Of a stretch of 20,466 bases of DNA, positions 400 through 15,895 are shown piece by piece. Under the pieces are notes generated by a model that saw only the letters and a list, made by a program, of their open reading frames with translations, searched no databases and had not been told where the DNA came from. The position numbers and the translations under genes were made by a program. Numbering within the stretch: position 1 is the first letter of the stretch; every line of letters begins with the position of its first letter. Origin of the DNA: Coleofasciculus sp. B1-GNL1-01 (GTDB lineage: Bacteria; Cyanobacteriota; Cyanobacteriia; Cyanobacteriales; Coleofasciculaceae); assembly GCA_040220235.1 (NCBI GenBank), contig JAVJTO010000086.1; one strand, 5' to 3'.

Positions 400-2307
400 T
401 CAGTTGGTATTATTTCTAAGCAACCGTAAACCACTCAGAATCACCAGTATAGTAGAACCTTCATGTCCAATAACGCCGAGAGGAAGGCTAATACCAATCG
501 TAAAATTAGCCACTAATAACACACCAATACTACACAACGCAAACCCAATATTTTGGGTAACAACCTGAGTGACACGACGACCTAAACGAATCGCAGCCGT
601 TAACTTTTCTAAACGATCTGCCATTAATACAACATCGGCGGTTTCCAAAGCCACATCACTCCCAGCAGTTCCCATGGCAATTCCCACAGACGCGGTTGCC
701 AACGCTGGGGCATCATTGATACCATCACCCACCATGGCTACGGTTTGATCGTGTTTTTTCAGCCTTTGGATCACCTTAACTTTATCTTCTGGCAAAAGTT
801 CGGCATAAACCTCATCAATTCCTAGCTGCTGGGCGATGTAACTCGCCGTAGTTTTGCTATCACCACTGAGCATAATAACCTGTTCAATTCCCAGTTTTTT
901 CAAGTCTTTGATCACAGTTGCAGCCGCCGGACGCACGGTATCGGCAACTGCGATAATTCCCAAGAGTTTACCCGCAGCCGCCACCCAAACGATGGTTTTA
1001 CCGTCTTGTTTCAAGCGTTCGCTTTCTACGATTAGACTCTTGGGGACGTGAGCAATTTCAGATTGAATAAATTTAGCTGTACCAACTTTTATCCCTTCCC
1101 CGTCAACATCACCACTGACACCAAAACCGGTGTGAGATACTACATTCGTAGCCGATGCTAACGTCCAGGATTTATCCATAGTGGCTTGCACAATTGCCTT
1201 GGCAATAGGATGTTCGGAATAGGCTTCCACAGCCGCCGCTTTTAACAAAACCTTATCTTCATTGTTGGGGTCAAGACTGATAATTTGGATAACCTTTGGT
1301 TCTCCAGTCGTCAGGGTTCCCGTTTTGTCAAAGGCAATCGCTCGTATTTTGCCGATTACCTCCAATTGAGCGCCACTTTTGAATAAAATACCCTGTCGCG
1401 CCCCATTCGTCATTCCCGATAGCAGTGTCGGCATAATTGCTGCCATTAATGCACAGGGAGACGCGACGACTAAAAAAACCAAAGCCTGATAAATCGTCCT
1501 TTGCCAATCCCAATTGAAAACAAAAGGGGGAAGAATCGCCAGCAGGATACCACAAACTATAATTATTTTCGCATAACCGCGTTCTAAGCGTTCAATGAAT
1601 AGTTGAGAGGGTGGCGCTTCCGTTTGCGCTTGCTTGACCAAACGAATAACCCGTTGAATTAAGCTACTTTCGGGGGGTTGATGCACTCGCAGGATTAACG
1701 CCCCACTACCATTAATTGTGCCAGCAAAAACTTCATCTCCCACTGTTTTTTCTCTAGGTAGCGATTCTCCAGTAATAGAGGCTTCATTGAGACTACTTGC
1801 ACCTTCAATAATCAAGGCGTCGGTGGGAATTAATTCTCCGGGTTTCACTAAAATTTGGTCATCGATTTTTAAGTCTTGAATCGGAATCTGACAGGTTTGA
1901 CCTTGGAGGATAACCCGTGCTGTATCAGGTGTCAATCCCATCAAACTGCTAATCGCACGGCTGGTTCGTTTCATGGCGTAATCTTCTAATGCCCCACTGA
2001 TGGCAAAGATAAGAATTAATACCGCGCCATCAACAATTAGGAAATAGTCCCGCTGCCAAACTCCTAAAAATGCCGCTCCTAATGCGGCGATGATCATCAA
2101 CAAATCAACATCGAGTTCCTTTTCGACAAACAGAGTGGTTAGTCCCTCTTTCGCACTCTCGTAACCTCCAATTACATAGGCGGCTGGGAGGATGAATAAC
2201 GCTAATCCTAACCAGCCAAGTTGGAGAAAAAGCCAACCCAAGCATACTAAAACAGCACAGGCTACCGCCGCCCAAGTATCTTGATGTTCTGCGATGATTG
2301 TTTTCAT
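400..2307 (-). CDS. coaT: P1B-4 type heavy-metal (cobalt) exporting P-type ATPase
   Basis: TGES, SPC membrane motif, DKTGTLT, HP, GDGINDAP and C-terminal HEGST motif; no N-terminal metal-binding domain; divergent from a MerR-CobH regulator as in the Synechocystis coaT/coaR pair. Confidence 0.9.
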   Translation of the reverse strand: MKTIIAEHQDTWAAVACAVLVCLGWLFLQLGWLGLALFILPAAYVIGGYESAKEGLTTLFVEKELDVDLLMIIAALGAAFLGVWQRDYFLIVDGAVLILIFAISGALEDYAMKRTSRAISSLMGLTPDTARVILQGQTCQIPIQDLKIDDQILVKPGELIPTDALIIEGASSLNEASITGESLPREKTVGDEVFAGTINGSGALILRVHQPPESSLIQRVIRLVKQAQTEAPPSQLFIERLERGYAKIIIVCGILLAILPPFVFNWDWQRTIYQALVFLVVASPCALMAAIMPTLLSGMTNGARQGILFKSGAQLEVIGKIRAIAFDKTGTLTTGEPKVIQIISLDPNNEDKVLLKAAAVEAYSEHPIAKAIVQATMDKSWTLASATNVVSHTGFGVSGDVDGEGIKVGTAKFIQSEIAHVPKSLIVESERLKQDGKTIVWVAAAGKLLGIIAVADTVRPAAATVIKDLKKLGIEQVIMLSGDSKTTASYIAQQLGIDEVYAELLPEDKVKVIQRLKKHDQTVAMVGDGINDAPALATASVGIAMGTAGSDVALETADVVLMADRLEKLTAAIRLGRRVTQVVTQNIGFALCSIGVLLVANFTIGISLPLGVIGHEGSTILVILSGLRLLRNNTN

Positions 2308-2336
2308 GTCATGATTAATTACTCCCCGACTGCCTC

Positions 2337-2378
2337 ATCCTAAACCTTGACATTAATGTCAAGGTCAAGTGCTAAACT
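2337..2378. promoter_or_regulatory. MerR-type operator/promoter for coaT (CoaR site)
   Basis: Perfect 22-bp palindrome ACCTTGACATT-AATGTCAAGGT (2344-2365). On the minus strand -35 TTGACC (2368-2363) and -10 TAGGAT (2342-2337) are 20 bp apart, the over-long spacer typical of MerR targets. Confidence 0.85.
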
Positions 2379-2384
2379 AGCAAA

Positions 2385-3497
2385 ATGGCAAACCAATACT
2401 TAACCATCAAACAACTCACCGCAGCAGTTGGTAATGGTTTAACTCCGAGAATGGTCAGGCATTATCACAAACTGGGGTTGTTACCAGAGGCGAAACGTTC
2501 TGCGGCTAACTATCGTCTCTATACCGATGCAGATGTGCAGCATTTGCGGCGGATTGTGGCGTTAAAATCTCAGGGATTTCAATTAGATCATATTCGTCAG
2601 TTATTGACACCTGATTCTGGAGATCTAAAGGTTGACCAATTAACGTCTCAACTGCAACAGCAATATCGCTCAGTGATGCAACAATTGGCTCGTTTGCGCC
2701 AAACAGCATCGGCTTTGGAAGGCTTGCTAGGACGCGATTATTGTTGTCGAAAAATTCAAACTGAAGCACTGGCGCAACTGCGACAATTAGAACTAGAATC
2801 GACAGTTGAATTAGAAGAATTAGCACCATTTTGGCACAGTTTAGATGCCGCCTGTGATGCTCATCCCGAAGACTTTAGCGAATCCTTGCAGCAACTGTTA
2901 CCCGATTTATCTCAAAAGAATGAAGTTGAACGCGATTTACTGACCAAATTGGTACTCGCTAGTGGTGATGTCAGTTTAGTCGATTTTGTGCGTTTGAGTC
3001 GAGGGGCGATCGCTTCAGCTAGAAATGCTCTCAAGACTCACTGTGAAATTGTTGCTGATGTTTCTCCAGTTGTTGCGGCTCTTGATCAGACTCGCATTGC
3101 ACATTTAGGGATTCCTGTCAAGACTCTAATAGATGAACCCCATATCCACAGCGCTGATGAAGCCGAACGCAGGTTTTGCCAACAAGGGAAATGGCAGGAA
3201 CGATTACAACACCTCACGCCTGGTTGTATCTTAGCGATCGGCTATGCTCCATCAGTATTGATATCTGCCTTGAAATGCATCGAACAAGGACAACTGCAAG
3301 TCTCCTTAATTGTGGGAATGCCGATTGGTTTCAGCCACGCCCCAGCCGCTAAACGCCGATTAATGGGTTCGGGTATGGAGTATATTACGACTCTGGGGAC
3401 AACTGGTGGTGGATTATTAGCCGCCGTCGCCCTGAATAGTTTAGTTGAATCTTTGATTGAAAAGCCCGATTGTCATTGTTATTTGCAGAATCAGTAG
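2385..3497 (+). CDS. coaR: MerR-family cobalt-responsive regulator with precorrin isomerase (CobH/CbiC)-like C-terminal domain
   Basis: N-terminal MerR HTH (LTPRMVRHYHKLGLL, NYRLY); CobH-like region (IGYAPSVL, IVGMPIGF, GGGLLAAVALN); C-terminal Cys-His-Cys (DCHCY) as in CoaR/CorR. Confidence 0.9.
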   Translation: MANQYLTIKQLTAAVGNGLTPRMVRHYHKLGLLPEAKRSAANYRLYTDADVQHLRRIVALKSQGFQLDHIRQLLTPDSGDLKVDQLTSQLQQQYRSVMQQLARLRQTASALEGLLGRDYCCRKIQTEALAQLRQLELESTVELEELAPFWHSLDAACDAHPEDFSESLQQLLPDLSQKNEVERDLLTKLVLASGDVSLVDFVRLSRGAIASARNALKTHCEIVADVSPVVAALDQTRIAHLGIPVKTLIDEPHIHSADEAERRFCQQGKWQERLQHLTPGCILAIGYAPSVLISALKCIEQGQLQVSLIVGMPIGFSHAPAAKRRLMGSGMEYITTLGTTGGGLLAAVALNSLVESLIEKPDCHCYLQNQ

Positions 3498-3499
3498 AG
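3474..3499 (+). repeat. Direct repeat copy 1 (coaR 3' end), left boundary of accessory segment
   Basis: CATTGTTATTTGCAGAATCAGTAGAG is identical to 10130-10155. Confidence 0.95.
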
Positions 3500-3674
3500 A
3501 GTTAGCACTTAGCCCTGATCGAATGACTGATCATCTGGGTTACGATTTCCCAGAGAGTCGCTATCCTGATCGCACCAAGGGCAATATATATCCCCTTCAC
3601 GGCTAGGGCAAGGATGATGTTTTGCTAGACAATGCGGAGGGTGCGGCGAGCGATCGCAATCCCTTGAGCTATTT

Positions 3675-3884
3675 GCCGATGGATCGGCTGATCCCTTACA
3701 GGATGGACATTTAGGCTGGCTAGTACCGCACCGTGATCCGGACGCCGTAGCAGCTGCATGTATTGACAATGATCAGCGCTGTGATGGGGAGTGGTTGCGA
3801 TAACAATGTCTGGCTCAATTTAGCCGAGATGCTTTTCAAGAAAAGTTTAAACAACTCCTGTATAACTTAGATCACAAAATTTAG
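3675..3884 (+). pseudogene. C-terminal remnant of a family 4 (GT-B) glycosyltransferase
   Basis: Reads ADGSADPLQDGHLGWLVPHRDPDAVAAACIDNDQRCDGEWLR*QCLAQFSRDAFQEKFKQLL, resembling the C-terminus of cyanobacterial GT4 enzymes; internal TAA at 3801-3803 and no recognisable intact 5' part. Confidence 0.7.
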
Positions 3885-3932
3885 GGTCTGGCTAAGGTTG
3901 AATAGAATAGTATCCCCACTCAGAGGTTGACA

Positions 3933-4328
3933 ATGGCAGGTCTGTCTAATCTTCAGCTTACCATCGACTTTAGCGAATCTGATTTGGACTCCGAAGACTT
4001 GGAAACCCTTACCCAAAGTCTCTATGAGGATATAGATTCTTTAGAAGAAGTCGAGTCTGTTGAGCGTATCCGAGAAAAGCCAGCAGGAGATGTGAAAGCA
4101 GGAGCAGAGGATTTGGGTAAATTGATGGTTGGCGTTTTAAGCACCCAGATCCCCTTACCGACAATAAAACCTGTCGTGAACTTTCTGTTCAGCCGCTTAT
4201 CTAGTAAAAAAGTTAAGGTGAAAGCAGAGGCTAATGGTAAAACCATTGAGTTAGAGACTGTTGGCACCAGCAAAGAAGAGGTATTAGTTCTGATTGAACA
4301 ACTCAAAGACTTTGTAGAGAGGGCGTAG
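3933..4328 (+). CDS. EACC1-like (effector-associated constant component) small protein
   Basis: Acidic N-terminus (DLDSEDLETLTQSLYEDI), PAGDVKAG loop, hydrophobic middle and C-terminal KVKVKAEANGKTIEL strands; lies 10 bp upstream of a caspase-domain gene, the usual EACC1 context. ATG 3933 preferred over TTG 3927 because GAGG lies at 3923-3926. Confidence 0.7.
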   Translation: MAGLSNLQLTIDFSESDLDSEDLETLTQSLYEDIDSLEEVESVERIREKPAGDVKAGAEDLGKLMVGVLSTQIPLPTIKPVVNFLFSRLSSKKVKVKAEANGKTIELETVGTSKEEVLVLIEQLKDFVERA

Positions 4329-4338
4329 GACGCGGCAA

Positions 4339-7300
4339 ATGGCAAAATTAGCATTGCTGATTGGGATTAGTCAGTACGAGTTTGGTTTAGACCCACTCCC
4401 CGGTTCTATAAAGGATGTACAAGCAATGGAGAAAGTTTTGCGACATCCAGAGAGGGGAGGATTTGATGCCGTTGAGGTGATCACCAATCCTGACCCCCAG
4501 CAGATGCGGGAGAAGATTGAGGCACTATTTGCCGATTGCCACAAAGACGATCTATTGCTCTTGTATTTCTCCGGTCATGGCATTACAGACAACAGAGGAA
4601 AACTGTACTTAACCAGTCCTACAACTAAAAAGACACGACTCGCAGCAACGGCGATTCCTTCTGACTTTGTGCATAGCCTCATGCTCACCAGTCCTTCTCG
4701 GAAACAAGTCATGATTCTTGACTGTTGCTTTAGTGGGGCTTTCGCTAAGGGAATGACCGCTAAAGCTGATGCTGCTGTTCTTACCTCTTCTGGTTTATTA
4801 GAGTATTCCCAGTCAGGAACAGATCTCTCACTTTACACTCGTTTCCTGGTTGAAGGGATGGAGACGGGTGCTGCCGATCTGAATAAAGATGGGATAATTT
4901 CTGTTGATGAGTTGCATGAGTATGCCAAAGAAAAAATAGTGCAATGCTCAACAGAGATTAAGCCAGAAATATATCCCTTCAAAGAAGGTCATAAACTATC
5001 ATTAACTCAAACATCAATTTGTTTTCAGGAACCTCTTCTACCCATTTTTACACCTCCAAGTTTTCCTGATTTTTATGGTAGGCAGACTGAGTTGGAGCAG
5101 GTAAAAAAATTGCTTCAAGCCTCCCCAGTTGTGATACTGTGGGGAGAGTCGGGGGTAGGAAAGACTTACTTGGCAGCACAGCTAGCGCATCAGCTCAGTA
5201 ATGATTACAAAGTTTGTTGGCTAGACAAAGAAGAACTAACATTGGAGGAACTGTTGTTGCAGGTGAACGAGTTCCTCAAAAGCAATGGTGAGTACGGATT
5301 TGTCACAACTTATGCCGAAGACAAAATTACAAGCACTCATAAAATCCCCACTTTAGTGCAGGTTATCAGCACTAGCAAATTAGCCAAGTATGCATTCTTT
5401 ATTGATGGATTTCAGATTGCCAACCATTCAGAGATTGAGCCGTTTATTCAACGCTTCAGAACCCATGGAGGGAAGAACCGATTAATCTTGATTGACCATT
5501 CTCCAGAGCAGTCGTTAGGAGTATGGCTGGCTAGTCGAGTTCATAAATTCAATGTGGCAGGCTTTCAATACGAGGAAGCGGTTAAGTATATTAATCAAAG
5601 ATGTCAAGCTTCAGGGATTGAATGCTCCTTAAATGATGTGATTGCGGTAATCGAAAAAACAGCCGGACATCCTTTAGCGATAGACTTAGTTATTCAGTGG
5701 TACTCCCTGTTAGGAAACTCGATGGGAAATCTACTGCATCGGCTGGTCGAGTATGATAAACGCTATGGCGCTGAACTCAATAAGAGACTATTGGAAAATG
5801 TAGCCATACATCTTGATGAAACAGAACGGGAAGCTTTAAGCCGTCTTTCAGTGTTTCGGACACCCGTTCAACGTTCAGCCTGGACGTATCTGGATATTTC
5901 AGAAAGTGTGGGAGAGTCGCTATTACAGCGCCGATTGCTAACACGAGTGGACTGTGATAAGTTCCAGATGCATCCTCTGATTGCTGAGTTTTGGCGTACT
6001 TCTCAGTCTGAGGAAGAAATGGTATATTGGCAAGAAAAGGTAGCTCACTATTATTGGCAACAGGGTAAACAAAGCCCTTTAGAAACATTAGATCGCCGGG
6101 CTTACCTCGACTCATATTATCACTGGTGTAAAATTGGGCAATTAGAGACAGCAGCACAGGTTTTAAATGATCTGGTGGGTCGTTCACATGAAAAAGAACG
6201 GCTTCTATCAGAAAGACTGACTGGATTAGGAGAATGGCTACTTAATCTTGATGATGCTATTTTTGTAGATAAACCCTGGCTATTGTTGGAGAAAGGTCGA
6301 AAGCTAGAGAAACAAGGTAGCGCAGCAAACGCTGAAGAAATTTTCAAAAATGCCTACGAAATTTTTGAGCAACAAGGGAATCAACTGGGTGCTTCTGTTG
6401 CTTTGTACTATGTGGGCAAGATGCGTCATCTTAGGGGGCAGCCTGAACTAGCTTTGCAAGCCTTGAAGTCTGTTTTAGAGATAGCGGAAAGTCAAGCGGA
6501 TTTTCCAATGCAAATCCGCACTTTAGGGAAAATGATTGGCTGTTATACGGATCTTGGTCAGTGTGATAATGCCCGAAATGTTGCTAATACTGCTGATGCA
6601 CTAGCTACTCGTTCTGACGATCAACTAGGTCTGGCTTTAATTTTATATCGTCAGGGTAGTATCGAGCGTCATCAGAGCAATTTCTTGGAAGCAGAGGAAT
6701 TCTTTAACGATAGCGCGAAAAAATTCGCCGAGCTGGGCGATATATATCGAGAGTCCAAATCTTGGGCACGATTAGGTATTTGCCAAAAATCCCAAAGTAA
6801 GCTTAAAAAAGCGGAGGATAACCTTAAGCATGCTATTGAACTTAAACAATCCATTAATGATCGTCATGGTGAAGCACGAGATTTGGATTATCTTGCAGAT
6901 ATTTATACTCATTTAGGTCGCTATGAAGAAGCCGAGAAAAGTTATCGAGAATCCTTGAATATTAAAGAAGGTAAAGATGGTATTCAACCTGATGTATATG
7001 GACAAATTAAGACATATAACAACTTAGCTAGAATCGCTTTATTAACTGGTCGCTTGGATAAAGCAGATGAGTTGCTTCAGGAATCTAAAAAACGGATTGA
7101 TCAGCAAAACAAACGTTATATTGGAGTGAATGGCTCACGCCTAATAATTCAAGGAGATCTGCAATTTAATCAAGGTGAATATGAAGCTGCATTGCAATCC
7201 TATACAGAGGCGGCTGCCTGCTTTACATCTCCCAATCCAGAAGTACCGAGCAGCTACGCACGAGTCTTATTCTGTTTTGGTCAAACTTACTTAACCTTAG

Positions 7301-9876
7301 GAAATCTTAGTTTAGCCAAGCAGTATCTGGAAGACTCTTTAGCCCGCTTTCACGAGTACCGTATGCGCTACTATGAAGCGCATTCACTCACCCATTTAGC
7401 AAGATTAACAGCTTTAATAAATTCGCATGAAGAAGCATATAACCAAAATCAAGAAGCGATAAGTATTGCTAAAGACATTAATGCCCAGTCAATTGTTAGA
7501 GTTTGTCTGGAGACTCAAGGAAAAATAGAAGAAAATAAAATTTTAAGTAGTTTTAATTTTGGTGAACAAGAAAAAAATACAAAAGACTTGATTGCATCAG
7601 TATGGCGGTGCTATGATGATGCAATTGAGGCAATTCATGAATTAACAGGCAATAAAAATATAAATCGACAGATCGCACAACTACAAGTTCACAAAAAGCT
7701 ATGGCTGTTCACAGTTAAGCATTTATGTAAAGAGGCTATATCTGATGATGATGCCTATGGGTTGTTACAGACAGAAAAACTGCCTCAAGATGTCATCTAT
7801 ATCGAATTATTAAATTTCAAGTATACCCTTGGTATTTTGAATTCCATATCCTCTGGTCTCGCTTCCAGAATAGCCGATTGTGCTTTAAGCATAATTTCAC
7901 CTCTAGCTATGCGATTTGGGTTCAATGAGTTACGTGAAGAATTAGAAGAACGAGCTTTGGCTTTTCTCCATCCGGACGAATACGAAGAAATTAACCAAGC
8001 TCTGGAAAGCCGATTCCCACAGCGAGAAGACTTTATCGAGAATCTCACTTCAGACTTAGAGTCTCTTCTTGAAGAAGCTAAAATTCAGGCTGAAATTTTT
8101 CCTAGAGCTAAGACAATTTACAGTATCTATAAAAAGTCAAAAGCTCGTAAAGTGTCTTTAGACAAAATCCTGGATATCATTGGGGTTCGTATTATAACTC
8201 AAACTGAAAGCGAATGTTACAAAGTCTTGGCAATTGTACAGGAAATGGGAAAATTTTTTCAGGGAGAAGGAATTCTGAAAGAAAGCCTCAGAGATTATAT
8301 TAAACATCCTAAGATTACAGGTTATCAATCTATTCATATCAATATCAGATATGGAGAACCACAGGCACGAATTGTAGAATTTCAGATCCGGACACACAGG
8401 ATGCATCTTGCCGCAGAGGTAGGAATTGGTGTACTAGGTCTGGATCAGGCTGCTCACTGCCGTTATAAAGATCCAGCCTCCTATGCTCGACCGTTGTCAA
8501 AAAGAAATTATGAACTGGCACAGAGTCAACGATTAAATTTGGTAGTTAAATGCCAAAAAGAATCTGTAATAACAATAGGTAATATTATTCGATCTAGCAA
8601 ATTTGAATTATTGAGCGTAGATCTTGATAAATTTTCAGATCAGCGAATAATACTCCAGCTTAATATAGTAACTAAAAGTCGTCGTTATAGGAAAGAAAAA
8701 ACAGAAATAAATCAGGCTCATAATCAGCTAGTCGAAACTATTAATGAAATACCAAATTGTGAGGTTGTTAATGATAAAAATAAAGAATCAGAACTTAAAA
8801 TGATTAGCATGTCTATACAAGACAAAGCTTTATTACTCCAAGAGTTAACTAGGAATTCAAGTGATTTAGACAAATTCATTTACCTAATAACTCCCAAAAA
8901 TGATGTTAAGAAACTACAGAAGGGGGCAACCCCTATTGATTTTGCCTATCGTATTCATACTGATCTAGGTAACCACTGTGCTGGGGCGCGAGTGAATGGG
9001 CAGATGGTTACCCTGGATACCTCCCTGAAGACTGGGGATATTGTGGAAATCATCACCAATAAAAACAGTCATCCTAACTTAGGCTGGCTGCAATTTGTGA
9101 AGACTAGTAGTGCCCGCAATCGGATTCGTCAATGGTATAAGCGATCGCATTGGCAAGAAAATATTGACCATGGTCGAGAACTTCTGCAAAAAGAACTAGG
9201 CAAAGATGGACTTGAAACTCTGCTGGAGTCTGAAGCAATGAAGGACGTGGTGGAGCAATGTAATTATCATAGCGTCGATGATTTACTTGCTAATTTAGGT
9301 TATGGTGAACTCTCCCTCAATCGGGTAGCTAATCGCATACGAGAAGCTACCAATAACAAAAAACTAATTGATAATACCCCTGAGTTGTCAACTACGCCTC
9401 CTACAATCTTACACACCGTTAATATCTCCTCAAGCAAGTCAGCCATTGCAGGGATAGAAGGATTAGGCTATCACCTTGCTCATTGTTGCAATCCTGTACC
9501 TGGTGAACCAATTATTGGCGTTGTCAAACTTGCAGGACGTGGTATTTCTGTTCATACCCAGGAATGCCATAATTGGGACAATGTACCAGATGATCGCCTG
9601 ATCGAGGTTAGCTGGAATAATACAGAAGGTCAAACTTACCCAATTTATATTCAAGTCGAAGTTTGTGACGACGTGGGTGTCCTCAACAACATCACTAGTC
9701 TTTTAAAGGATCTCAAAATTAATATTCGAGATATCCGTATGGATCGTTACGCTGACAAAACGGCTATGATTTATTTATGCATTGATATCTACGATCATAA
9801 ACAGATTCAGCGAATCTTTTCCCAAATAAAAAAGCTAAAAGGCTATTTGAGTGTGCGCCGTAGTAGTCAAGTATGA
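4339..9876 (+). CDS. Multidomain protein: caspase-like peptidase C14 / STAND NTPase / TPR repeats / RelA-SpoT synthetase / ACT-like / TGS / ZFD / ACT
   Basis: YFSGHG (H80) and LDCCFSG (C129); Walker A GESGVGKT (269-276), Walker B FFIDG, GHPLA, MHPL; TPR-like helices ~aa 560-1100; synthetase motifs RAKTIYSIYKK, LDIIGVR, DYIKHPKITGYQSIH, EFQIRT; TGS TPIDFAYRIHT; CC-H-C zinc finger; terminal ACT. Confidence 0.9.
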   Translation: MAKLALLIGISQYEFGLDPLPGSIKDVQAMEKVLRHPERGGFDAVEVITNPDPQQMREKIEALFADCHKDDLLLLYFSGHGITDNRGKLYLTSPTTKKTRLAATAIPSDFVHSLMLTSPSRKQVMILDCCFSGAFAKGMTAKADAAVLTSSGLLEYSQSGTDLSLYTRFLVEGMETGAADLNKDGIISVDELHEYAKEKIVQCSTEIKPEIYPFKEGHKLSLTQTSICFQEPLLPIFTPPSFPDFYGRQTELEQVKKLLQASPVVILWGESGVGKTYLAAQLAHQLSNDYKVCWLDKEELTLEELLLQVNEFLKSNGEYGFVTTYAEDKITSTHKIPTLVQVISTSKLAKYAFFIDGFQIANHSEIEPFIQRFRTHGGKNRLILIDHSPEQSLGVWLASRVHKFNVAGFQYEEAVKYINQRCQASGIECSLNDVIAVIEKTAGHPLAIDLVIQWYSLLGNSMGNLLHRLVEYDKRYGAELNKRLLENVAIHLDETEREALSRLSVFRTPVQRSAWTYLDISESVGESLLQRRLLTRVDCDKFQMHPLIAEFWRTSQSEEEMVYWQEKVAHYYWQQGKQSPLETLDRRAYLDSYYHWCKIGQLETAAQVLNDLVGRSHEKERLLSERLTGLGEWLLNLDDAIFVDKPWLLLEKGRKLEKQGSAANAEEIFKNAYEIFEQQGNQLGASVALYYVGKMRHLRGQPELALQALKSVLEIAESQADFPMQIRTLGKMIGCYTDLGQCDNARNVANTADALATRSDDQLGLALILYRQGSIERHQSNFLEAEEFFNDSAKKFAELGDIYRESKSWARLGICQKSQSKLKKAEDNLKHAIELKQSINDRHGEARDLDYLADIYTHLGRYEEAEKSYRESLNIKEGKDGIQPDVYGQIKTYNNLARIALLTGRLDKADELLQESKKRIDQQNKRYIGVNGSRLIIQGDLQFNQGEYEAALQSYTEAAACFTSPNPEVPSSYARVLFCFGQTYLTLGNLSLAKQYLEDSLARFHEYRMRYYEAHSLTHLARLTALINSHEEAYNQNQEAISIAKDINAQSIVRVCLETQGKIEENKILSSFNFGEQEKNTKDLIASVWRCYDDAIEAIHELTGNKNINRQIAQLQVHKKLWLFTVKHLCKEAISDDDAYGLLQTEKLPQDVIYIELLNFKYTLGILNSISSGLASRIADCALSIISPLAMRFGFNELREELEERALAFLHPDEYEEINQALESRFPQREDFIENLTSDLESLLEEAKIQAEIFPRAKTIYSIYKKSKARKVSLDKILDIIGVRIITQTESECYKVLAIVQEMGKFFQGEGILKESLRDYIKHPKITGYQSIHINIRYGEPQARIVEFQIRTHRMHLAAEVGIGVLGLDQAAHCRYKDPASYARPLSKRNYELAQSQRLNLVVKCQKESVITIGNIIRSSKFELLSVDLDKFSDQRIILQLNIVTKSRRYRKEKTEINQAHNQLVETINEIPNCEVVNDKNKESELKMISMSIQDKALLLQELTRNSSDLDKFIYLITPKNDVKKLQKGATPIDFAYRIHTDLGNHCAGARVNGQMVTLDTSLKTGDIVEIITNKNSHPNLGWLQFVKTSSARNRIRQWYKRSHWQENIDHGRELLQKELGKDGLETLLESEAMKDVVEQCNYHSVDDLLANLGYGELSLNRVANRIREATNNKKLIDNTPELSTTPPTILHTVNISSSKSAIAGIEGLGYHLAHCCNPVPGEPIIGVVKLAGRGISVHTQECHNWDNVPDDRLIEVSWNNTEGQTYPIYIQVEVCDDVGVLNNITSLLKDLKINIRDIRMDRYADKTAMIYLCIDIYDHKQIQRIFSQIKKLKGYLSVRRSSQV

Positions 9877-9907
9877 TAAAAGGTCGCACAGTGAGGCAGT
9901 TTCGAGT

Positions 9908-9968
9908 TATAGCGCTACGCGCCAGGGAATAGGGAATGGGGAATGGGGAATGGAGAAGAAAAAAGCTT
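9908..9968. mobile_element. Truncated MITE end (TATAGCGCTACGCGC) with GGGAATG/GGGAATA heptamer repeats
   Basis: TATAGC terminus like the element at 229, followed by about four heptamer units; the partner inverted repeat is not found. Confidence 0.5.
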
Positions 9969-10129
9969 GCTCATCGGTTATCCATTCATAGAATTCCAGG
10001 GACTCTTGAGAGCAGTCAACACAATGGTGACAGCGTTTTGGAGTCGGTAACTTTTGCACTCTCCCTTTGCGGATGAGTCGGTTCAACATACCGCGTAGAG
10101 CATCTGCATGGATGCCAAAATGAATCTGC
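9969..10129 (-). pseudogene. feoC: Internal fragment of a second feoC allele
   Basis: 161-bp ungapped match to 11234-11394 with 7 mismatches; lacks both the start and the native 3' end. Confidence 0.9.
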
Positions 10130-10155
10130 CATTGTTATTTGCAGAATCAGTAGAG
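10130..10155 (+). repeat. Direct repeat copy 2 (coaR 3' end), right boundary of accessory segment
   Basis: Identical to 3474-3499; encodes HCYLQNQ-stop. Confidence 0.95.
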
Positions 10156-10198
10156 CGTCGGTTCAATAAAAGTAACACCGATTCAGGAGGTCACGCCG

Positions 10199-10981
10199 AT
10201 GATCAACACGACTCTTAACTTTAAGAAAGCACCTGGTCACCAAGTTTTAGCCGCAGCAGGTAAAAAGATTTTACGTCCGGGGGGACGCACCGCGACTGAA
10301 CAGCTTTTTGAGTGGGCAAATTTTCAACCGGGAGAGACGGTATTGGAACTTGCGGCTAGTTTTGGCTATAGTGCGATCGCACTGGCTCAATGCTTTGGTG
10401 TCAGGGTTGTCGGTGTCGAGAAGAACCCTGAGAGTGTAGCACGGGCGCGGGAGAATATCCAGGCAGCAGGGTTAGAAGGACAGGTGGAAATTATTGAAGG
10501 CGATATTTTTCACCTAGAAGCTATTCCTGGACAATTCGATTACGTTCTAGCAGAAGCAATTCTAACCATGCAAGCTATCCCTGGTAAAGAAAAGATTTTG
10601 CAAGGTGTTCGGCAAAAACTAAAGCCAGGGGGTAAGTACCTCGCCCATGAAGTATTGGTTAAAAACCATGAGGAGCAAGTTCACAAAACCCTATCCCAGG
10701 TTATTCGCGTAAATTCCACACCCCTATCCTTAGAAAACTGGAGTAGCCTCTGCGAAAAAACCGGACTCAACGTGCAGCAGTATCAAACGGGAGCGATGAA
10801 TTTGTTAAATCCTATTCAGATACTGCGAGATGAAGGCGTAATTGATACCCTTCGGATTTTTTGGAATGTGTTAACTAAACCGCCGATTCGGGAGCGAGTT
10901 TTGGCAATGCGTCGTGCCTTTCACCAACACCGAGAGGATTTAGGATATATCGTATTTTGTGCCATTGCTAGCGAAGCCTAG
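10199..10981 (+). CDS. Class I SAM-dependent methyltransferase
   Basis: LRPGG, motif I variant VLELAASFG, VVGVE, GDIF, FDYVLAEA, LKPGG; AGGAGG RBS at 10186-10191. Confidence 0.85.
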   Translation: MINTTLNFKKAPGHQVLAAAGKKILRPGGRTATEQLFEWANFQPGETVLELAASFGYSAIALAQCFGVRVVGVEKNPESVARARENIQAAGLEGQVEIIEGDIFHLEAIPGQFDYVLAEAILTMQAIPGKEKILQGVRQKLKPGGKYLAHEVLVKNHEEQVHKTLSQVIRVNSTPLSLENWSSLCEKTGLNVQQYQTGAMNLLNPIQILRDEGVIDTLRIFWNVLTKPPIRERVLAMRRAFHQHREDLGYIVFCAIASEA

Positions 10982-11054
10982 ACAAATTGTTTAGTCCTAG
11001 TCGTTGCTGCTAGGGAAAAGGATCGCGCTGTTCAAGCGGTATAGCAACGGTAGC

Positions 11055-11082
11055 GTAGAGACGTTGCATACTACGTCTCTAC
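11055..11082. repeat. REP-like palindrome between convergent genes, possible terminator
   Basis: GTAGAGACGT-tgcatact-ACGTCTCTAC, perfect 10-bp stem; a related partial copy is at 15305-15328. Confidence 0.7.
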
Positions 11083-11171
11083 CTGTATTTCTTGGTCTTT
11101 CAGGGTGAAATTATGACTATTACACGCTTGGTCATCGCCCGGTTTGGCGATCGCAAGTCTATGTGCCAATA

Positions 11172-11456
11172 CTACTGAACCGATGCTTCAGTGCTATGGG
11201 AGCAGCACTCCTGCTTGTTGATCGCAGCCGCAGGCTCATCGGTCACCCATTCATAGAATTCTAAGGACTCTTGAGAGCAGTCAACACAATGGTGACAGCG
11301 TTTTGGAGTCGGTAACTTTTGCACTCTCCCTTTGCGGATGAGTCGGTTCAGCATACCGCGTAGAGCATCCGCATGAATGCCAAAATGAATCTGCATTTGA
11401 GCCAGGGATGCTCTCCCCTGCTGGGACAGATAGTCCTGAATCTCATTCAAAATCAT
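11172..11456 (-). CDS. feoC: FeoC-like winged-helix protein
   Basis: MILNEIQDYL, ALRGML, RKGRV winged-helix pattern with CxxCxxC; downstream of feoB. Confidence 0.85.
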   Translation of the reverse strand: MILNEIQDYLSQQGRASLAQMQIHFGIHADALRGMLNRLIRKGRVQKLPTPKRCHHCVDCSQESLEFYEWVTDEPAAAINKQECCSHSTEASVQ

Positions 11457-11550
11457 GTCTTTTTTCCGCTTTCAACACTCAGTTATGATGAACCGATTAA
11501 ATGTATCTGGCGATTCATCGGTTTCTACAATGCTCCCTAATACTTATTCA

Positions 11551-12030
11551 TTGGACTTTGGACAAAAAAATAAATTTGCGTAATTTATTTGCCAAGGCAT
11601 TTAGGGCAGAAAAATTAGATGTAGGGGCGGGTTTAGGGAATTTGTAGGGGCGGGTTTAGGGAATTTGTAGGGGCGGGTTTAGGGAATCAATTCAGATATC
11701 CACCAATAACGGAAAAACAAAACCCGCCCTCCCCACCAATAACGGAACAAGAAAACCTGCCCATTCCCCCACCGAACGGCAATCGATTAATCCCAAACTG
11801 GACAACCAAACCTACCTTATTCTCAACCGCGATCGCACAAAAAAAAATGTCGAAATTGGGGCAGGGCGGGTTTTGTAGAAAGGTGATTGGTGACTCCATT
11901 AATTTTGTCCCTAAACCCGCCCCTACATTGGGTTTTATGTCCCCATATTATAGGTTAATATTAACCTGAAACCCGATCAAAAAACACCAGATTCCCAACC
12001 GCGATCGCACTTTGTTTGTCCAAAGTCCAG
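11551..12030. mobile_element. 480-bp MITE with TIRs and 7-bp target duplication, carrying a REP cluster
   Basis: TGGACTTTGGACAAA (11552-11566) inverted at 12015-12029; TTATTCA directly repeated at 11544-11550 and 12031-12037. Confidence 0.8.
11621..11926. repeat. GTAGGGGCGGGTTT REP cluster
   Basis: Three tandem 23-bp units GTAGGGGCGGGTTTAGGGAATTT starting 11621, 11644, 11667; inverted copy at 11909-11926; degenerate copies between; another copy at 15364-15379. Confidence 0.85.
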
Positions 12031-12048
12031 TTATTCAGCAAACCCTAT

Positions 12049-14388
12049 CTAATTGCCGATCATCTGACGCCTGTTCCGGCGAACGGGTTGTGCGATCTTA
12101 AAACCCACAATCGTGATCGCCATGACCAGCACTAATCCCGCAATCCAAGCCAGGGATGTACCCGGTTGCTGAGGGAGTATTGCCCCTTGGTAAAATAACG
12201 TAGCACTCCAGTAGGCAAGTCCTGTCGTCCAAGCTGCCACAAACACCGTCCATCCTACGTTGGTTTCCCGGTAGATGGCGGCAGTCGCGGCGACACAGGG
12301 GAAGTACATCAGTACAAACAGCAAATAGGCAAAAGCACCCGCTCGACCGTCAAAGCGTTGAACCATAGCGCCAAAGGTACCTGTGGTTACCTCTTGCTCC
12401 TCAGCCGCCGCTTCAAGATTGCTCACATCACCCACCGATATACCCAGGGGGTCAAGCAGATTACCAGGAACCTCGGCTAAATTAGCTGGGATCGTGGCAA
12501 ACGCTTCACCAATCCCTCCCCAAAAGTCAAAAGTTTCTGGCGTTTCTAGCGTTTCTGGCTCTACCTCTGCTCCCAGTTGACCGTAAAGGGAGTCAAGTGT
12601 ACCCACCATCGCTTCCTTGGCAAAAACCCCGGTAAAAATACCCACCGTCGCGGGCCAATTGTCTCGCTCTAACCCCATCGGTGCAAAGACGGGAGTGATT
12701 GAGCGGCTGATGGAACTGAGAACCGACTTATCCGTGTTTTCCTGACCAAAGGAGCCATCAGTCCCGATTGAGTTCAATATACTCAATACCATCACCATGA
12801 TCACGATAACTTTCCCTGCCCGCAGCATAAACCCTTTGAGCCGATCCCAGGTACGCAATAACACCCCTTTAAGATTCGGTAGATGGTAGGGGGGGAGTTC
12901 CATGACAAAGGGCGAGGCTTCACCTTGTAACAGGGTGTTTTTCAAGACCAACCCGGTGAACACCGCCATGGCAATGCCAATCAGGTAAAGTCCAAAGACG
13001 ACATTCTGACCCGCTATCGGGAAAAACGCCGCCGCAAATAAAGCGTAAACCGGTAGTCGTGCGCCGCAGGACATGAACGGGTTCATGACAATGGTCATCA
13101 AGCGATCGCGTTGATTTTCTAGGGTGCGGGTTGCCATAATCGCTGGTACGTTACAGCCGAACCCCACTAACATCGGCACAAAGGATTTCCCCGGAAGTCC
13201 AACAAAGCGCATAAAGCGATCCATGACAAACGCGGCTCGCGCCATATACCCAGAGTCTTCTAAGACAGAAAGGCACAAAAACAAGATGGCAATAATCGGG
13301 ATAAATGTCGCCACTGTCTCGATCCCGCCACCGATCCCCTCAGCCAGCAGAACTTTTAGCCATTCGGGTGTACCCATCGTGCTGAGTAACTCGCCGAAAC
13401 CTTCGACAAAGATCGTCAGCGTCACGAGATCGAAAAAATCAATAAAGGCACCGCCGACATTAATCGTCAGTACAAACATCAGGTACAGTACCACCAGAAA
13501 GATGGGCAGACCAAACCAGCGGTTGAGTACCACACTATCGATTCGGTCAGACATATTACTGCTGACTTCCCGGGTGCGTTCCGTCGCCCCATTAACCAGC
13601 TGACGCACAAAGCCGTAACGACTATCGGCAACGACAATATCGATATCTTCGCCCAGCACCTGATGAATCTTGCGGCGCTGCTCTACCACCTGTTTTTCTA
13701 ACTCCTGTCCTCTCAACTCAGGCGCAATCCGGTCTTCGTACTCTAGCAGTTTCAGCGCCGTCCAGCGAGGTTCAACGGCTCGGTCAGGACTTTGTTCCAT
13801 GACGATGGGCATCACCTGAGCGATCGCGTCTTCGAGTACGGGGGGATATGCCACATAGCTGTGGGGTTTGACTGGGTTTTGCAGGTTCTGATTAATCGTA
13901 TCCCGCAGGATCGCCACACCTTCATTACGCGATGCGACTAATGGTGTTACCGGACAACCCAGGCGTTCTGATAGGAGAACGGTATCGATGCGGATACCCC
14001 GATCCTGCGCCACATCGGTCATGTTCAGCGCCACCACCAAGGGGAGGCGCATTTCCATGATTTGGGTAGTCAGATACAGGTTCCGCTCTAAGTTAGAAGC
14101 GTCAACAATATTAACCACTAAGTCGGCTTCGCCAGTGAGCAGGTAATCTCTGGCAATAATTTCATCGAGTCCAGTGTCTTGGTCTTCAGCATCCAAGGAA
14201 TAGACGCCCGGTAGATCAACAACGGTAATATTCTCGTCGCGATCGCGATAGTTCCCTTCCTTGCGCTCAACGGTGACTCCGGGCCAATTCCCGACGCGCT
14301 GGGTGGCACCGGTTAAGGCGTTAAATAGGGTGGTTTTGCCGCAGTTGGGATTACCGACTAGAGCAATAGTCCGCTTATGCATTCTCAT
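12049..14388 (-). CDS. feoB: Ferrous iron transporter FeoB
   Basis: G-domain GNPNCGKTT, VGNWPGVT, DLPG, NMTD; membrane domain with EDSGYMAR, GFGCNVP, PFMSCGAR, FVMELPPY, YFPC. Confidence 0.97.
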   Translation of the reverse strand: MRMHKRTIALVGNPNCGKTTLFNALTGATQRVGNWPGVTVERKEGNYRDRDENITVVDLPGVYSLDAEDQDTGLDEIIARDYLLTGEADLVVNIVDASNLERNLYLTTQIMEMRLPLVVALNMTDVAQDRGIRIDTVLLSERLGCPVTPLVASRNEGVAILRDTINQNLQNPVKPHSYVAYPPVLEDAIAQVMPIVMEQSPDRAVEPRWTALKLLEYEDRIAPELRGQELEKQVVEQRRKIHQVLGEDIDIVVADSRYGFVRQLVNGATERTREVSSNMSDRIDSVVLNRWFGLPIFLVVLYLMFVLTINVGGAFIDFFDLVTLTIFVEGFGELLSTMGTPEWLKVLLAEGIGGGIETVATFIPIIAILFLCLSVLEDSGYMARAAFVMDRFMRFVGLPGKSFVPMLVGFGCNVPAIMATRTLENQRDRLMTIVMNPFMSCGARLPVYALFAAAFFPIAGQNVVFGLYLIGIAMAVFTGLVLKNTLLQGEASPFVMELPPYHLPNLKGVLLRTWDRLKGFMLRAGKVIVIMVMVLSILNSIGTDGSFGQENTDKSVLSSISRSITPVFAPMGLERDNWPATVGIFTGVFAKEAMVGTLDSLYGQLGAEVEPETLETPETFDFWGGIGEAFATIPANLAEVPGNLLDPLGISVGDVSNLEAAAEEQEVTTGTFGAMVQRFDGRAGAFAYLLFVLMYFPCVAATAAIYRETNVGWTVFVAAWTTGLAYWSATLFYQGAILPQQPGTSLAWIAGLVLVMAITIVGFKIAQPVRRNRRQMIGN

Positions 14389-15040
14389 TCACCTCTTCAA
14401 TACAAAGGACATCGGCTTCGTGTCGGCGTAAGCTCAGGTTAAATCCCCGCACTTCGATTTCAATCGGGTCCCCTAGGGGCGCATGGCGGATCACAGTGAA
14501 CTCGGTTCCGGGTGTCAATCCCATGGCTAGCAATTTGCCCTTGTAGCCTCCAGTCGTTTTCTCGTAGCCAACAATACGCCCTTTGCTACCGACGGTTAAA
14601 TTGCTGATATATTTGTCTGTATTCATTGCTTTTCCCTGTTTACAAGCGTTAACTTGATCGGGTTGAGTCACCAGAATTTTGTTCGCCATACCCGCCCCCA
14701 AACCAATGCGGTTATCCCCGAAGGCGACAATCACCGAGCCACTGGGAACGCAGCTCACCACTTGAACTTGAATACCTGGTGTTAACCCTAGACTCAGAAG
14801 GTGACTGATGCCGCCTTTGCCTTTGAACCCGATAATCGACACGCGATCGCCAGCACGAGTCCTCGCTAAAGGGAAATTAGTCTCGGCATCGAACCGCTTA
14901 TGGGCTAAGTCATCATAGAACTCAACAATGTTGTCTTCGTCCCCAGAGGGTTCAGAGGTTTGTCCAAAAAAAGAAAATCCCCATCCTTTACGCTTTCGGT
15001 TGCGCTGGCGTCGGTGATTTGAGTTTCTGTTGGCTGCCAT
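14375..15040 (-). CDS. feoA: FeoA protein with two tandem FeoA domains and a basic N-terminal extension
   Basis: Two FeoA signatures (LLSLGLTPG...RIGLGAGMANKILV; LLAMGLTPG...APLGDP...LSLRRHEA); overlaps the feoB start. Confidence 0.9.
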   Translation of the reverse strand: MAANRNSNHRRQRNRKRKGWGFSFFGQTSEPSGDEDNIVEFYDDLAHKRFDAETNFPLARTRAGDRVSIIGFKGKGGISHLLSLGLTPGIQVQVVSCVPSGSVIVAFGDNRIGLGAGMANKILVTQPDQVNACKQGKAMNTDKYISNLTVGSKGRIVGYEKTTGGYKGKLLAMGLTPGTEFTVIRHAPLGDPIEIEVRGFNLSLRRHEADVLCIEEVNENA

Positions 15041-15085
15041 TGCATGCTCCTGATTAAGACTATTGTTCTATAACGATTTGAGTTT

Positions 15086-15104
15086 ATTAGTAAACTTTTT
15101 TAAT
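15086..15104. promoter_or_regulatory. Possible Fur box upstream of feoA
   Basis: 19-bp AT-rich imperfect palindrome ATTAGTAAACTTTTTTAAT; weak match, supported mainly by context. Confidence 0.35.
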
Positions 15105-15304
15105 AATTAATTTGGGTTTGGGCAGGCTAGATGGGAAAAACTCGATGCAGGCAGTACACCCACAAGACTTAGGCTTTGGGGTTTTCCCGTGAAAGACCCC
15201 TAAACTCCATTCCCGTCCAAGTTGGCGGCATTAGATTCAAATAATTGTCTTATAGATAATAAAGTAAATGAAATGCGATCGCAATAGACTGGGCGGGGAT
15301 ACAT

Positions 15305-15379
15305 GTAGAGACGTGCCATGGCGCGTCTGGGCGGGCGCGAGTTACATCTGGGTCAAGATAGGTAAAACCCGCCCCTACA
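15305..15379. repeat. REP fragments (GTAGAGACGTGCCATGGCGCGTCT and AAAACCCGCCCCTACA)
   Basis: Same families as 11055-11082 and 11621-11926. Confidence 0.65.
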
Positions 15380-15632
15380 AACCATGCCCTCGAAGATTTT
15401 CCAGCTCGTTTGTACTCAACTGGGCTTGACAGTGCTGCAACTTATGCCAAAGGGACTCGATTTGCTCAAACGCCTGATCGGGAGACAATTTACCCGCCGT
15501 TTGCAAGTTGCAAATATAGCTGACTCGCTGGGCAAACTCTTGCAGATTGGCATTCAGTACCAGATGCTCCGGCTTGACGGCTCCGCGATAACGGGCATGG
15601 GGATACAGAAAGTTGTGTTTGGATTGCTTCAT
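15375..15632 (-). CDS. Small conserved cyanobacterial protein of unknown function (DUF7219-like)
   Basis: FLYP-RY-G, NANLQEFAQRVSYICNL, GKLSP-A-I-LW pattern recognised from a widespread cyanobacterial small-protein family. Confidence 0.75.
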   Translation of the reverse strand: MKQSKHNFLYPHARYRGAVKPEHLVLNANLQEFAQRVSYICNLQTAGKLSPDQAFEQIESLWHKLQHCQAQLSTNELENLRGHGL

Positions 15633-15650
15633 AGCTACCGCTCCCCGATT

Positions 15651-15669
15651 ATTGCGATTAATTTTTAAT
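15651..15669. promoter_or_regulatory. Fur-like box upstream of the 85-aa gene
   Basis: ATTGCGATTAATTTTTAAT, 19 bp, same pattern as the boxes upstream of isiA. Confidence 0.5.
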
Positions 15670-15895
15670 TACAGATTAGTTAACCTCAATTTTACCTGAT
15701 TGTCAAGTGAACCTGATCGTGGCGCGATCGCATTATTTGCCATAGCAATTGTAGTGTTGACCTACAGTAGCCAGTTGTTCAGCGCAGACATTTTGCAACT
15801 TAAGAGCCATTCATATTAACTCCTCCGCTGCGGGAAACCCCGTGTCTTCAGACCGGGGAGGAACGCACGGTAGCGGTTTTAACCGCTTGTAGTTC

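Follow-up and report, generated by a model that had tools for sequence, protein, structure and literature searches.

What is the function of a protein that carries a caspase-like protease at one end and most of a stringent factor at the other, joined by a nucleotide-dependent switch and a long repeat array? This question is posed by a locus in Coleofasciculus sp. B1-GNL1-01 (assembly GCA_040220235.1, contig JAVJTO010000086.1), from which a stretch of 20,466 nucleotides, one entire contig of the genome and here called the window, was analysed. In it, a small gene resembling EACC1 lies directly 5' of a very large one, whose product consists of a caspase, a STAND NTPase, an array of tetratricopeptide repeats (TPR) and a long RelA/SpoT homologue (RSH) tail. 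We favour the reading that the two genes form a conflict or cell-death system of the NOD-like receptor (NLR) kind, with two outputs and with the synthetase tail as its constant module, and we put the probability of this reading at about one half. The unit is composed of the following parts:

3927/3933..4328, plus strand: EACC1-like gene, 131 amino acids from the ATG at 3933
4339..9876, plus strand: caspase-STAND-TPR-RSH gene, a single open frame of 1845 amino acids with 0 internal stops
4345..4941, plus strand: Peptidase_C14 caspase-like domain of the EACC1-associated type, with the dyad H80/C130 and D128 two residues before the cysteine
5056..6258, plus strand: STAND-type P-loop NTPase with a helical/winged-helix part (Pfam, motifs, family alignment)
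6286..7578, plus strand: TPR array, about residues 650-1080 (Pfam, per-domain identity comparison)
7579..7788, plus strand: variable linker with many insertions and deletions between strains (metagenome contigs, per-domain comparison)
7789..8088, plus strand: helical remnant, the C-terminal end of an HD domain plus helices leading into the synthetase (Rel/RelA alignments, model)
8089..8484, plus strand: RelA/SpoT synthetase domain, SYNTH (Pfam, RelA alignment, family alignment, tree)
8485..8853, plus strand: family-specific insert between SYNTH and TGS, predicted to be ACT-like (gap against RelA, predicted structure)
8854..9078, plus strand: TGS domain (Pfam; H1540 aligned to RelA H432)
9079..9618, plus strand: helical (AH) and RIS/zinc-finger domains, with C1716, C1717, H1739 and C1743 invariant
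9619..9876, plus strand: C-terminal ACT/RRM domain and stop codon (Pfam, Rel alignment, model)

Open reading frames (ORFs), Pfam and NCBIfam agree on the two-gene unit that an initial annotation of the sequence had described. The genes are co-directional with a gap of 10 nucleotides, and because close homologues of the small protein start with MAG, MAD or MLN, the ATG at 3933 is its likely start codon. Along the large protein, Pfam finds Peptidase_C14 at residues 3-201 (5e-21), AAA_16 and nSTAND3 at about 245-297, TPR families at about 650-1080, RelA_SpoT (PF04607) at 1256-1377 (1e-26), TGS at 1514-1573 (1e-22), RelA_AH_RIS at 1586-1737 and ACT_4 at 1764-1841. The NTPase scores 29.6 bits against a cut-off of 27.2 with nSTAND3, over a short stretch only, and 34.1 against 32.6 with AAA_16; it contains a Walker A motif GESGVGKT (269-276, including K275), a Walker B motif FFIDGF (353-358) and the sequence GHPLAI (443-448), and G269, G274, K275, T441 and H444 are invariant in a family alignment of 17 sequences with 32-71% identity. 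The tripartite layout of NLR-like proteins is present, i.e., an N-terminal effector, a central NTPase and C-terminal repeats. All residues named in the initial annotation (H80, C129, K275, D1279, E1347) are found in the protein, though of the catalytic dyad claimed there, H80/C129, the histidine alone stood: H80, D128 and C130 are invariant in an alignment of 22 caspase sequences, and C129 varies, so that the dyad is H80/C130.

Could a fusion of this size be an assembly chimera or a decaying pseudogene? The G+C content, which falls to 0.36-0.39 over 7000-9500 as against 0.44-0.47 in the flanks, might raise this suspicion, but we regard the probability as negligible in view of the one open frame of 1845 codons, the invariant catalytic residues, an architecture that about 30 relatives and 5 other genomes share, and the independent contigs that bridge every junction. 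Among contigs from four metagenome runs (four studies), matches at a likeness of at least 85% reach into every one of the 30 bins of 3900-9900. The junction between the EACC1-like gene and the caspase is bridged by single contigs from two studies (X2 record 9, X4 record 25), and that between TPR array and RSH tail by X2 record 13 (6400-8602), X4 record 29 and X1 record 8; misassembly, the error against which the initial annotation had warned, was not found. Within the linker, at 7555-7652, the same metagenome contigs show small deletions and one 78-nucleotide replacement between environmental strains.

The initial annotation had pictured a single fusion protein. The architecture is real, but it belongs to a family whose N-termini have been swapped. 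A word-based search found about 30 full-length or near full-length relatives (32-92% identity), all of which keep the same NTPase-TPR-RSH core; they occur in, among others, Phormidium, Kamptonema, Roseofilum, Symploca, Spirulina and Planktothrix, where they are annotated merely as 'tetratricopeptide repeat protein'. According to precomputed Pfam assignments, the N-termini comprise caspase, CHAT, Trypsin_2, TIR and helix-turn-helix (HTH) domains; a further scan added the effector-associated domains EAD8, EAD7 and EAD10, with weak matches to HTH_26, Trypsin_2 and Lon_C. Throughout the family, STAND-TPR-RSH thus forms a constant core, to which exchangeable N-terminal modules are joined, the caspase being one of many. 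The core family appears to be small and made up mostly of filamentous cyanobacteria. It is carried by 5 of 400 other genomes of the same order, by 1 of 400 in a phylum-wide sample, and by none of 6 genomes of the same genus or 27 of the same family. Shorter proteins add little to it: among matches below 1014 amino acids, 4 of 81 fell into the diverged synthetase clade, two of these four on contigs of about 3 kb that are probably cut, and the others were canonical Rel with an HD domain. A contig search with the family alignment, keyed on generic RSH motifs, returned 80 loci that are canonical Rel (with L121 unchecked), and these genes served as outgroups in the trees below; none of 90 pattern matches from a metagenome-contig search with residues 1-1100 was confirmed.

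Some relatives have noteworthy neighbours. One family member lacks an N-terminal effector and has, immediately upstream, a gene for a Metallophos and CHAT fusion (L137:5541-7286, minus strand), which suggests that the protease-effector pair is provided here by a separate gene. One CHAT-carrying member sits behind DUF1822 and two unknown genes. Two distant members with another type of caspase have in common a divergently transcribed gene pair (L133:9688-11887 and L136:4757-6783), whose products of about 165 amino acids (37% identical) and about 500 amino acids (53% identical, with a hydrophobic C-terminus) match 0 Pfam families; these genes are candidate partners of the subclade with the other caspase. 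Finally, a member of 3390 amino acids (L135:6661-16833, plus strand) lies beside a 1984-residue helicase with an MZB domain and an NB-ARC protein.

The tail is the constant part of the family. In a phmmer comparison, it aligned to E. coli RelA residues 178-363 and 390-740, and BLASTP against the genome's own canonical Rel (751 amino acids, contig C8) aligned it from Rel residue 149 onward, so that the HD domain has lost its catalytic half. No HD family was present among the 25 of 40 Pfam matches listed or in the precomputed Pfam list, and with the full-length Rel model TIGR00691 the protein reaches 444.3 bits, below the cut-off of 499.2. From these alignments the tail reads as a long RSH without its hydrolase half, in which about the first 150 HD residues are missing. 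The synthetase, by contrast, is predicted to be competent: D1279 and E1347, which correspond to D275 and E335 of RelA in the phmmer alignment, are invariant in 17 of 17 sequences, as are R1256, K1258, Y1329, H1333 and Q1349 across the family. H1540, which aligns with RelA H432, is likewise invariant, and so are the four zinc-finger residues C1716, C1717, H1739 and C1743 (CCHC). The consulted passages of PMC7797070 describe how H432 of RelA stacks against the CCA end of the deacylated tRNA in the A site and how its replacement abolishes activation. With H1540 and the CCHC residues conserved, the tail may make (p)ppGpp in dependence on the ribosome and on deacylated tRNA.

Two further features set the tail apart. 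The first is a stretch of about 110 residues between SYNTH and TGS without counterpart in RelA. When modelled alone, this insert takes the order beta-alpha-beta-beta-alpha-beta (predicted local distance difference score, pLDDT, 79.6; predicted template-modelling score, pTM, 0.70), and in structure it most resembles ACT domains, among them those of Rel proteins, at middling VIA Z scores of 8.0-8.9. Foldseek with the insert alone gave no matches at E<=0.001 (best E 1.7e-3, ACT domains), and it is by its secondary-structure order and these middling scores that we predict an ACT-like domain. The second is the uneven relation to the host's Rel, to which the C-terminal region (CTD) is 55% identical and SYNTH only 30%. 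In a model of the whole tail (pLDDT 74.8), the fold search returned ribosome-bound RelA first, followed by SpoT and Rel; the Foldseek E value was 2.9e-30 for RelA as opposed to a weak 6.7e-6 for CapRel-type proteins (PDB 7ztb and 9erv).

Which parts of the protein are held constant and which diversify was evaluated by per-domain comparison and by trees. At depth, SYNTH is the best conserved domain (63-75% identity, compared with 41-59% for the NTPase). Close orthologues differ mainly in the TPR array, the linker and the insert, and in the TPR array more than in any other region; P0005 carries a swapped TPR cassette at about 650-850 with 32-60% identity between flanks of 84-100%. The two closest relatives (P0003, P0004) retain 93-100% identity over the C-terminal region of the RSH, from TGS to ACT. 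In the tree of SYNTH domains, the 17 fused ones group in a single clade with an SH-aLRT of 100, whose stem measures 1.19 changes per site. A single clade of the 17 fused CTDs, on the other hand, was rejected (approximately unbiased (AU) test, p 0.0045), because the two non-cyanobacterial members, P0030 and P0031, group with non-cyanobacterial Rel: they have a CTD of the non-cyanobacterial type, yet their SYNTH lies inside the family clade. The 15 cyanobacterial fused CTDs as one clade were not rejected (AU p 0.24), so that the nesting of the P0015 CTD among canonical Rel is not taken as evidence of a separate origin. These are quick trees, with long branches and composition bias flagged for the rows concerned.

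The main rival to the two-output reading is that the RSH tail is the sensor. According to this explanation, TGS, AH, RIS and ACT would dock on ribosomes and read deacylated A-site tRNA or some other translation defect; docking would open the STAND switch, such that severe starvation or phage damage to translation triggers the caspase and the EACC1 pore, with SYNTH activity as a mere co-signal or lock. The tail lies C-terminally, where STAND proteins hold their sensors, and it is constant while the N-terminal outputs vary; its CTD is much closer to the host's Rel than its SYNTH is and tracks the host phylum in P0030 and P0031, whose SYNTH stayed within the family, and neither the counterpart of RelA H432 nor any of the CCHC residues varies. 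What a sensor tail leaves unexplained is why a TPR array of 430 amino acids is kept and diversifies fastest, and why SYNTH is best conserved with invariant catalytic residues; moreover, binding to ribosomes is deduced from sequence only. We consider the sensor explanation possible but unlikely, and view with slightly more doubt a fuller version of it, a ribosome-docked NLR, in which the stringent-factor tail together with the ACT-like domain would be the sensing arm of the STAND protein, reading deacylated tRNA on stalled ribosomes and thereby directly licensing oligomerisation, caspase activity and death by pore formation, and local alarmone synthesis would be a second signal.

The same observations bear on the idea, also raised in the initial annotation, that the tail is an integrated decoy, which mimics the host's stringent factor such that phage anti-Rel or anti-stringent proteins bind it and trip the switch. 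A canonical Rel that could be guarded is present in all 6 of 6 carriers, and the CTD resembles host Rel and appears to have been exchanged for a host-like type across phyla. A bait would hardly be expected, however, to have a SYNTH so far from host Rel (30% identity, stem branch of 1.19), to lack the HD half and to contain a family-specific ACT-like insert. Catalytic residues are needless in a pure bait, and their invariance further weakens the decoy, which we now find very improbable.

At the other end of the protein, the N-terminal output can be described with the help of known systems. The caspase passes NCBIfam NF047832 ('caspase, EACC1-associated type') with 154.4 and 159.8 bits (cut-off 140), and does so alone among 14 caspase matches in the genome. 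The small upstream protein is acidic in its N-terminal part; a linker in which VKAGA (residues 54-58 of the protein) is invariant comes next, then a hydrophobic segment containing Gly and, C-terminally, an alpha/beta part. It has 0 direct matches in Pfam, NCBIfam or PADLOC, and a word-based search found 3 close homologues only. However, when 1.84 billion representatives were searched with a profile built from the protein and these homologues, 194 relatives were obtained at E<=1e-3. When 125 sequences were scanned (the query and 124 of 150 listed relatives, leaving out P0078 and long or very short ones), PF19953, the Pfam family EACC1, was matched by 27 of them (best 4.5e-6), and every other family by at most 1. 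Its neighbours in a protein atlas are unnamed cyanobacterial clusters and, by structure, EACC1 clusters (TM 0.65-0.71). On this transitive evidence the small protein appears to be a divergent EACC1, an identity that the initial annotation had assigned outright and that stands by way of intermediates and atlas neighbours, though not by a direct match. One of the relatives left out of the scan, P0078 (1306 amino acids), matches residues 17-69 of the EACC1-like profile in 21 separate places; this span covers the acidic N-terminal part and the linker, so that the protein carries a tandem array of the putative cleavage region.

How might the two proteins act together? A model of two caspase domains with the EACC1-like protein scored 0.63, as compared with 0.01 for the best of three controls; the mark for this score is reached by 116 of 157 solved complexes and by 2 of 215 mismatched pairs, counts that are valid only roughly here, as our own alignments were fed to the model. 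The runs share at least 57% of contacts, and the partner's pLDDT is at least 78. In the model, K55 of the partner, which lies inside the invariant VKAGA, sits on H80/C129/C130, and a basic P1 residue would presumably fit a metacaspase-like S1 pocket with D128. For a homologous pair from Ktedonobacter racemifer, EACC1-caspase-Avs12, it has been reported in the consulted part of a preprint that the caspase cuts EACC1 into two fragments, that toxicity comes from the C-terminal fragment only, and that EACC1 makes liposomes permeable only after cleavage (Evans et al. 2025, bioRxiv 10.1101/2025.11.14.688446). Both this precedent and the docking in the active site are in line with the proposal of the initial annotation that EACC1 is a substrate of the caspase or a membrane effector. 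By analogy and from the model, we predict that the EACC1-like protein is the caspase substrate as well as a latent pore former.

How much of this is known from elsewhere? EACC1-caspase pairs were defined as 'System 4', with some 50 alternative domains behind the caspase, in the text consulted of Kaur et al. (2020, eLife, PMC7159879). The present unit resembles these systems in that a small 5' gene is followed by an N-terminal caspase and a variable remainder, which sometimes includes a STAND NTPase. It differs in that its small protein is too divergent for Pfam EACC1, and in that the remainder ends in a long RSH, which is not among the fused domains named in the text searched (figures and preprint supplements lie outside this search). 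Furthermore, the modelled cut site is a lysine, as opposed to the Asp49 proposed for the studied homologue, which probably aligns with E48 in the same linker here.

With Rel, RelA and SpoT, the tail has in common the order of SYNTH, TGS, helical, zinc-finger/RIS and ACT/RRM domains, as well as the catalytic and CCA-stacking residues. Unlike them, it lacks the HD half, carries an ACT-like insert, stays below the TIGR00691 cut-off and is fused behind 1100 residues of caspase, STAND and TPR, always as a second copy beside a canonical Rel. CapRel, an anti-phage synthetase of the RelA/SpoT fold that is inactive in cis until it is triggered, is a small enzyme of one domain that bears a C-terminal sensor of its own. 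Proteins of this type are without an NTPase, a TPR array or a protease, and match the fold of the present tail weakly.

The nearest precedent is found in fungi, where NLRs with an N-terminal RelA_SpoT domain have been interpreted as carrying it as an effector (Dyrka et al. 2014, PMC4986451, in the portion consulted). These proteins, too, combine an alarmone-synthetase domain with a NOD/STAND NTPase and repeats (WD40 or unannotated), but in them a short SYNTH takes the N-terminal place of the effector, whereas here that place is filled by another effector and a whole ribosome-type tail follows the repeats at the C-terminus. In the vWA-MoxR/VMAP ternary systems, RelA nucleotidyltransferase or TGS domains are listed among the effectors (same excerpts of Kaur et al. 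2020, PMC7159879). The likeness lies in RelA-type and TGS domains within conflict systems of multicellular bacteria and in the adaptors EAD7, EAD8 and EAD10 common to both; the core there consists of vWA and MoxR, and the RelA domain is a variable effector there but the constant part here. No STAND-TPR protein with a long RSH lacking its hydrolase half at the C-terminus is described in the literature searched, which includes the texts of PMC7159879, PMC8195603, PMC3153485 and PMC3501461, figures and preprint supplements aside; within the same limits, the initial annotation, which knew of no described protein with the full combination, is borne out.

Taken as a two-output system, the unit might work as follows. 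The trigger would most likely be received by the fast-evolving TPR array, and, going by STAND biology, nucleotide-dependent oligomerisation would gather the N-terminal modules. The EACC1-type caspase would then cut the EACC1-like protein in its linker, as modelled, and free a C-terminal fragment able to permeabilise membranes, in analogy to the mechanism of the homologous pair. In parallel, the synthetase tail, predicted to be competent and unable to degrade its own product, would probably work on or near the ribosome, where its Rel-like C-terminal region would direct it, and arrest growth by way of an alarmone, this being the constant output; the tail may instead, or also, gate activation by translation status. 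In this scheme, the route from caspase to EACC1 pore is the known and exchangeable output, and the ribosome-type alarmone synthetase is the constant and undescribed module.

A number of points weigh against this two-output reading. A C-terminal enzymatic effector behind a repeat sensor is unusual for STAND proteins, so that the tail may be a sensor after all. The variability of the TPR array was observed in four close homologues, and the CTD discordance comes from quick trees with long branches and biased composition. The diverged synthetase may make (p)ppGpp or (p)ppApp, or may pyrophosphorylate tRNA. Phage is a candidate trigger only. On the side of the protease, Pfam EACC1 (PF19953) had 0 matches at E<=10 in the protein and in the whole genome; a hidden Markov model of the EACC1-like family found the ORF in the window only, with 0 of 5 loci of more distant relatives, including the two with the other caspase type and the divergently transcribed gene pair, such that the gene appears to be restricted to the closest subclade; and the modelled P1 residue, K55, differs from the one proposed for the homologue. 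PADLOC (2023 library) gave six matches, PDC-S33, caspase, TPR, mad8, TRIP13 and PDC-S01, none of which is an Avs model; these are domain-level matches only and amount to no named system. The window also contains no recognised defence neighbours; its flanks comprise cobalamin, iron-uptake, IS200/IS605 and photosystem genes.

This metabolic neighbourhood would suit a regulator unrelated to conflict, a STAND-TPR protein of the MalT or AfsR kind that tunes alarmone synthesis to a metabolite or developmental cue and uses its N-terminal domains for self-processing or signalling. Matches to TPR_MalT and AfsR-like profiles and the HTH N-termini of some members point the same way. Such a regulator would, however, not be expected to show a patchy and rare distribution that leaves out the same-genus genomes, nor to be paired with a pro-toxin-like EACC1 gene, and exchangeable N-termini with caspase, CHAT, TIR, trypsin-like domains and EAD adaptors are typical of conflict systems. 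We therefore deem this explanation improbable.

As regards its genomic setting, the unit is bounded on both sides by a direct repeat of 32 nucleotides and lies in an accessory segment, in agreement with the initial annotation, although the variable block turned out to be wider than described there:

3471..3502, no strand assigned: left copy of the 32-nucleotide direct repeat, 94% identical to the right copy; overlaps the 3' end of the MerR-CbiC gene
10127..10158, no strand assigned: right copy of the repeat; together with the left copy it flanks 3503-10126

The core, rare as it is, is missing at the syntenic site of a genome of the same genus (G454), which has one copy of the 32-nucleotide repeat at the matching place. 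This genome is colinear with window positions 1200-3529 (94%) and then resumes at 15340-15731; the jump defines a variable block of 3530-15339. The block also holds a methyltransferase gene, feoC, feoB and feoA, all missing at the G454 site, and its G+C content is 0.52 over feoB compared with 0.36-0.46 elsewhere, so that it looks like a mosaic variable region. A tRNA scan found none, i.e., there is no tRNA-linked integration site, and Pfam recognised no integrase among the proteins of the window. A second direct repeat, of 166 nucleotides (9969-10134 and 11234-11399, 95% identical), adjoins the right 32-nucleotide repeat with its first copy; since its second copy lies inside a FeoC-like ORF (11172-11456, minus strand), the first looks like a duplicated gene fragment. 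Between 3400 and 10300, 17 promoter-like sites were counted (15.4 expected) and 11 terminator-like sites (5.4 expected), none of the latter tellingly positioned. A low-complexity ORF of 86 amino acids at 3509-3769 (minus strand) has no family match and is probably not a gene.

Upstream, the ORF at 2385-3497 (plus strand) joins a MerR-type HTH domain (residues 18-114) to a CbiC precorrin-8X methylmutase (167-355), and may be a cobalamin-linked fusion of regulator and enzyme. Just past the variable block lies an IS200-like Y1 transposase (15896-16300, minus strand), beside an IS605 OrfB/TnpB-like gene with OrfB_IS605 and Cas12f1-like TNB domains (16368-17693, plus strand). The ORF at 18134-19162 (plus strand) encodes 342 amino acids that match only positions 3-270 of the 500-position photosystem II (CP43/CP47-type) profile; by this profile match it appears to be a short chlorophyll-binding relative, which we take from its size to be IsiA/Pcb-like. 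The feo iron-uptake genes lie about 3 kb upstream of it, beyond the IS element.

STAND or NLR-like immune switches, protease-activated pore toxins and alarmone synthetases as anti-phage toxins are each known singly. New is their combination in one polypeptide family, in which a hydrolase-less stringent factor with ribosome-reading domains is constant and the death effectors are exchangeable. If the tail is an effector, this would be an unusual NLR-like protein with two outputs, one per end. If it is a sensor, bacteria would have wired translation surveillance directly into a cell-death switch, and a ribosome-docked NLR, if true, would be a bacterial counterpart of the sensing of ribotoxic stress by innate immune receptors and would tie programmed cell death of multicellular cyanobacteria to the stringent response. 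Point mutants at H80/C130, K275, D1279/E1347 and H1540 would in either case provide a handle on the coupling of alarmones and cell death in these organisms.

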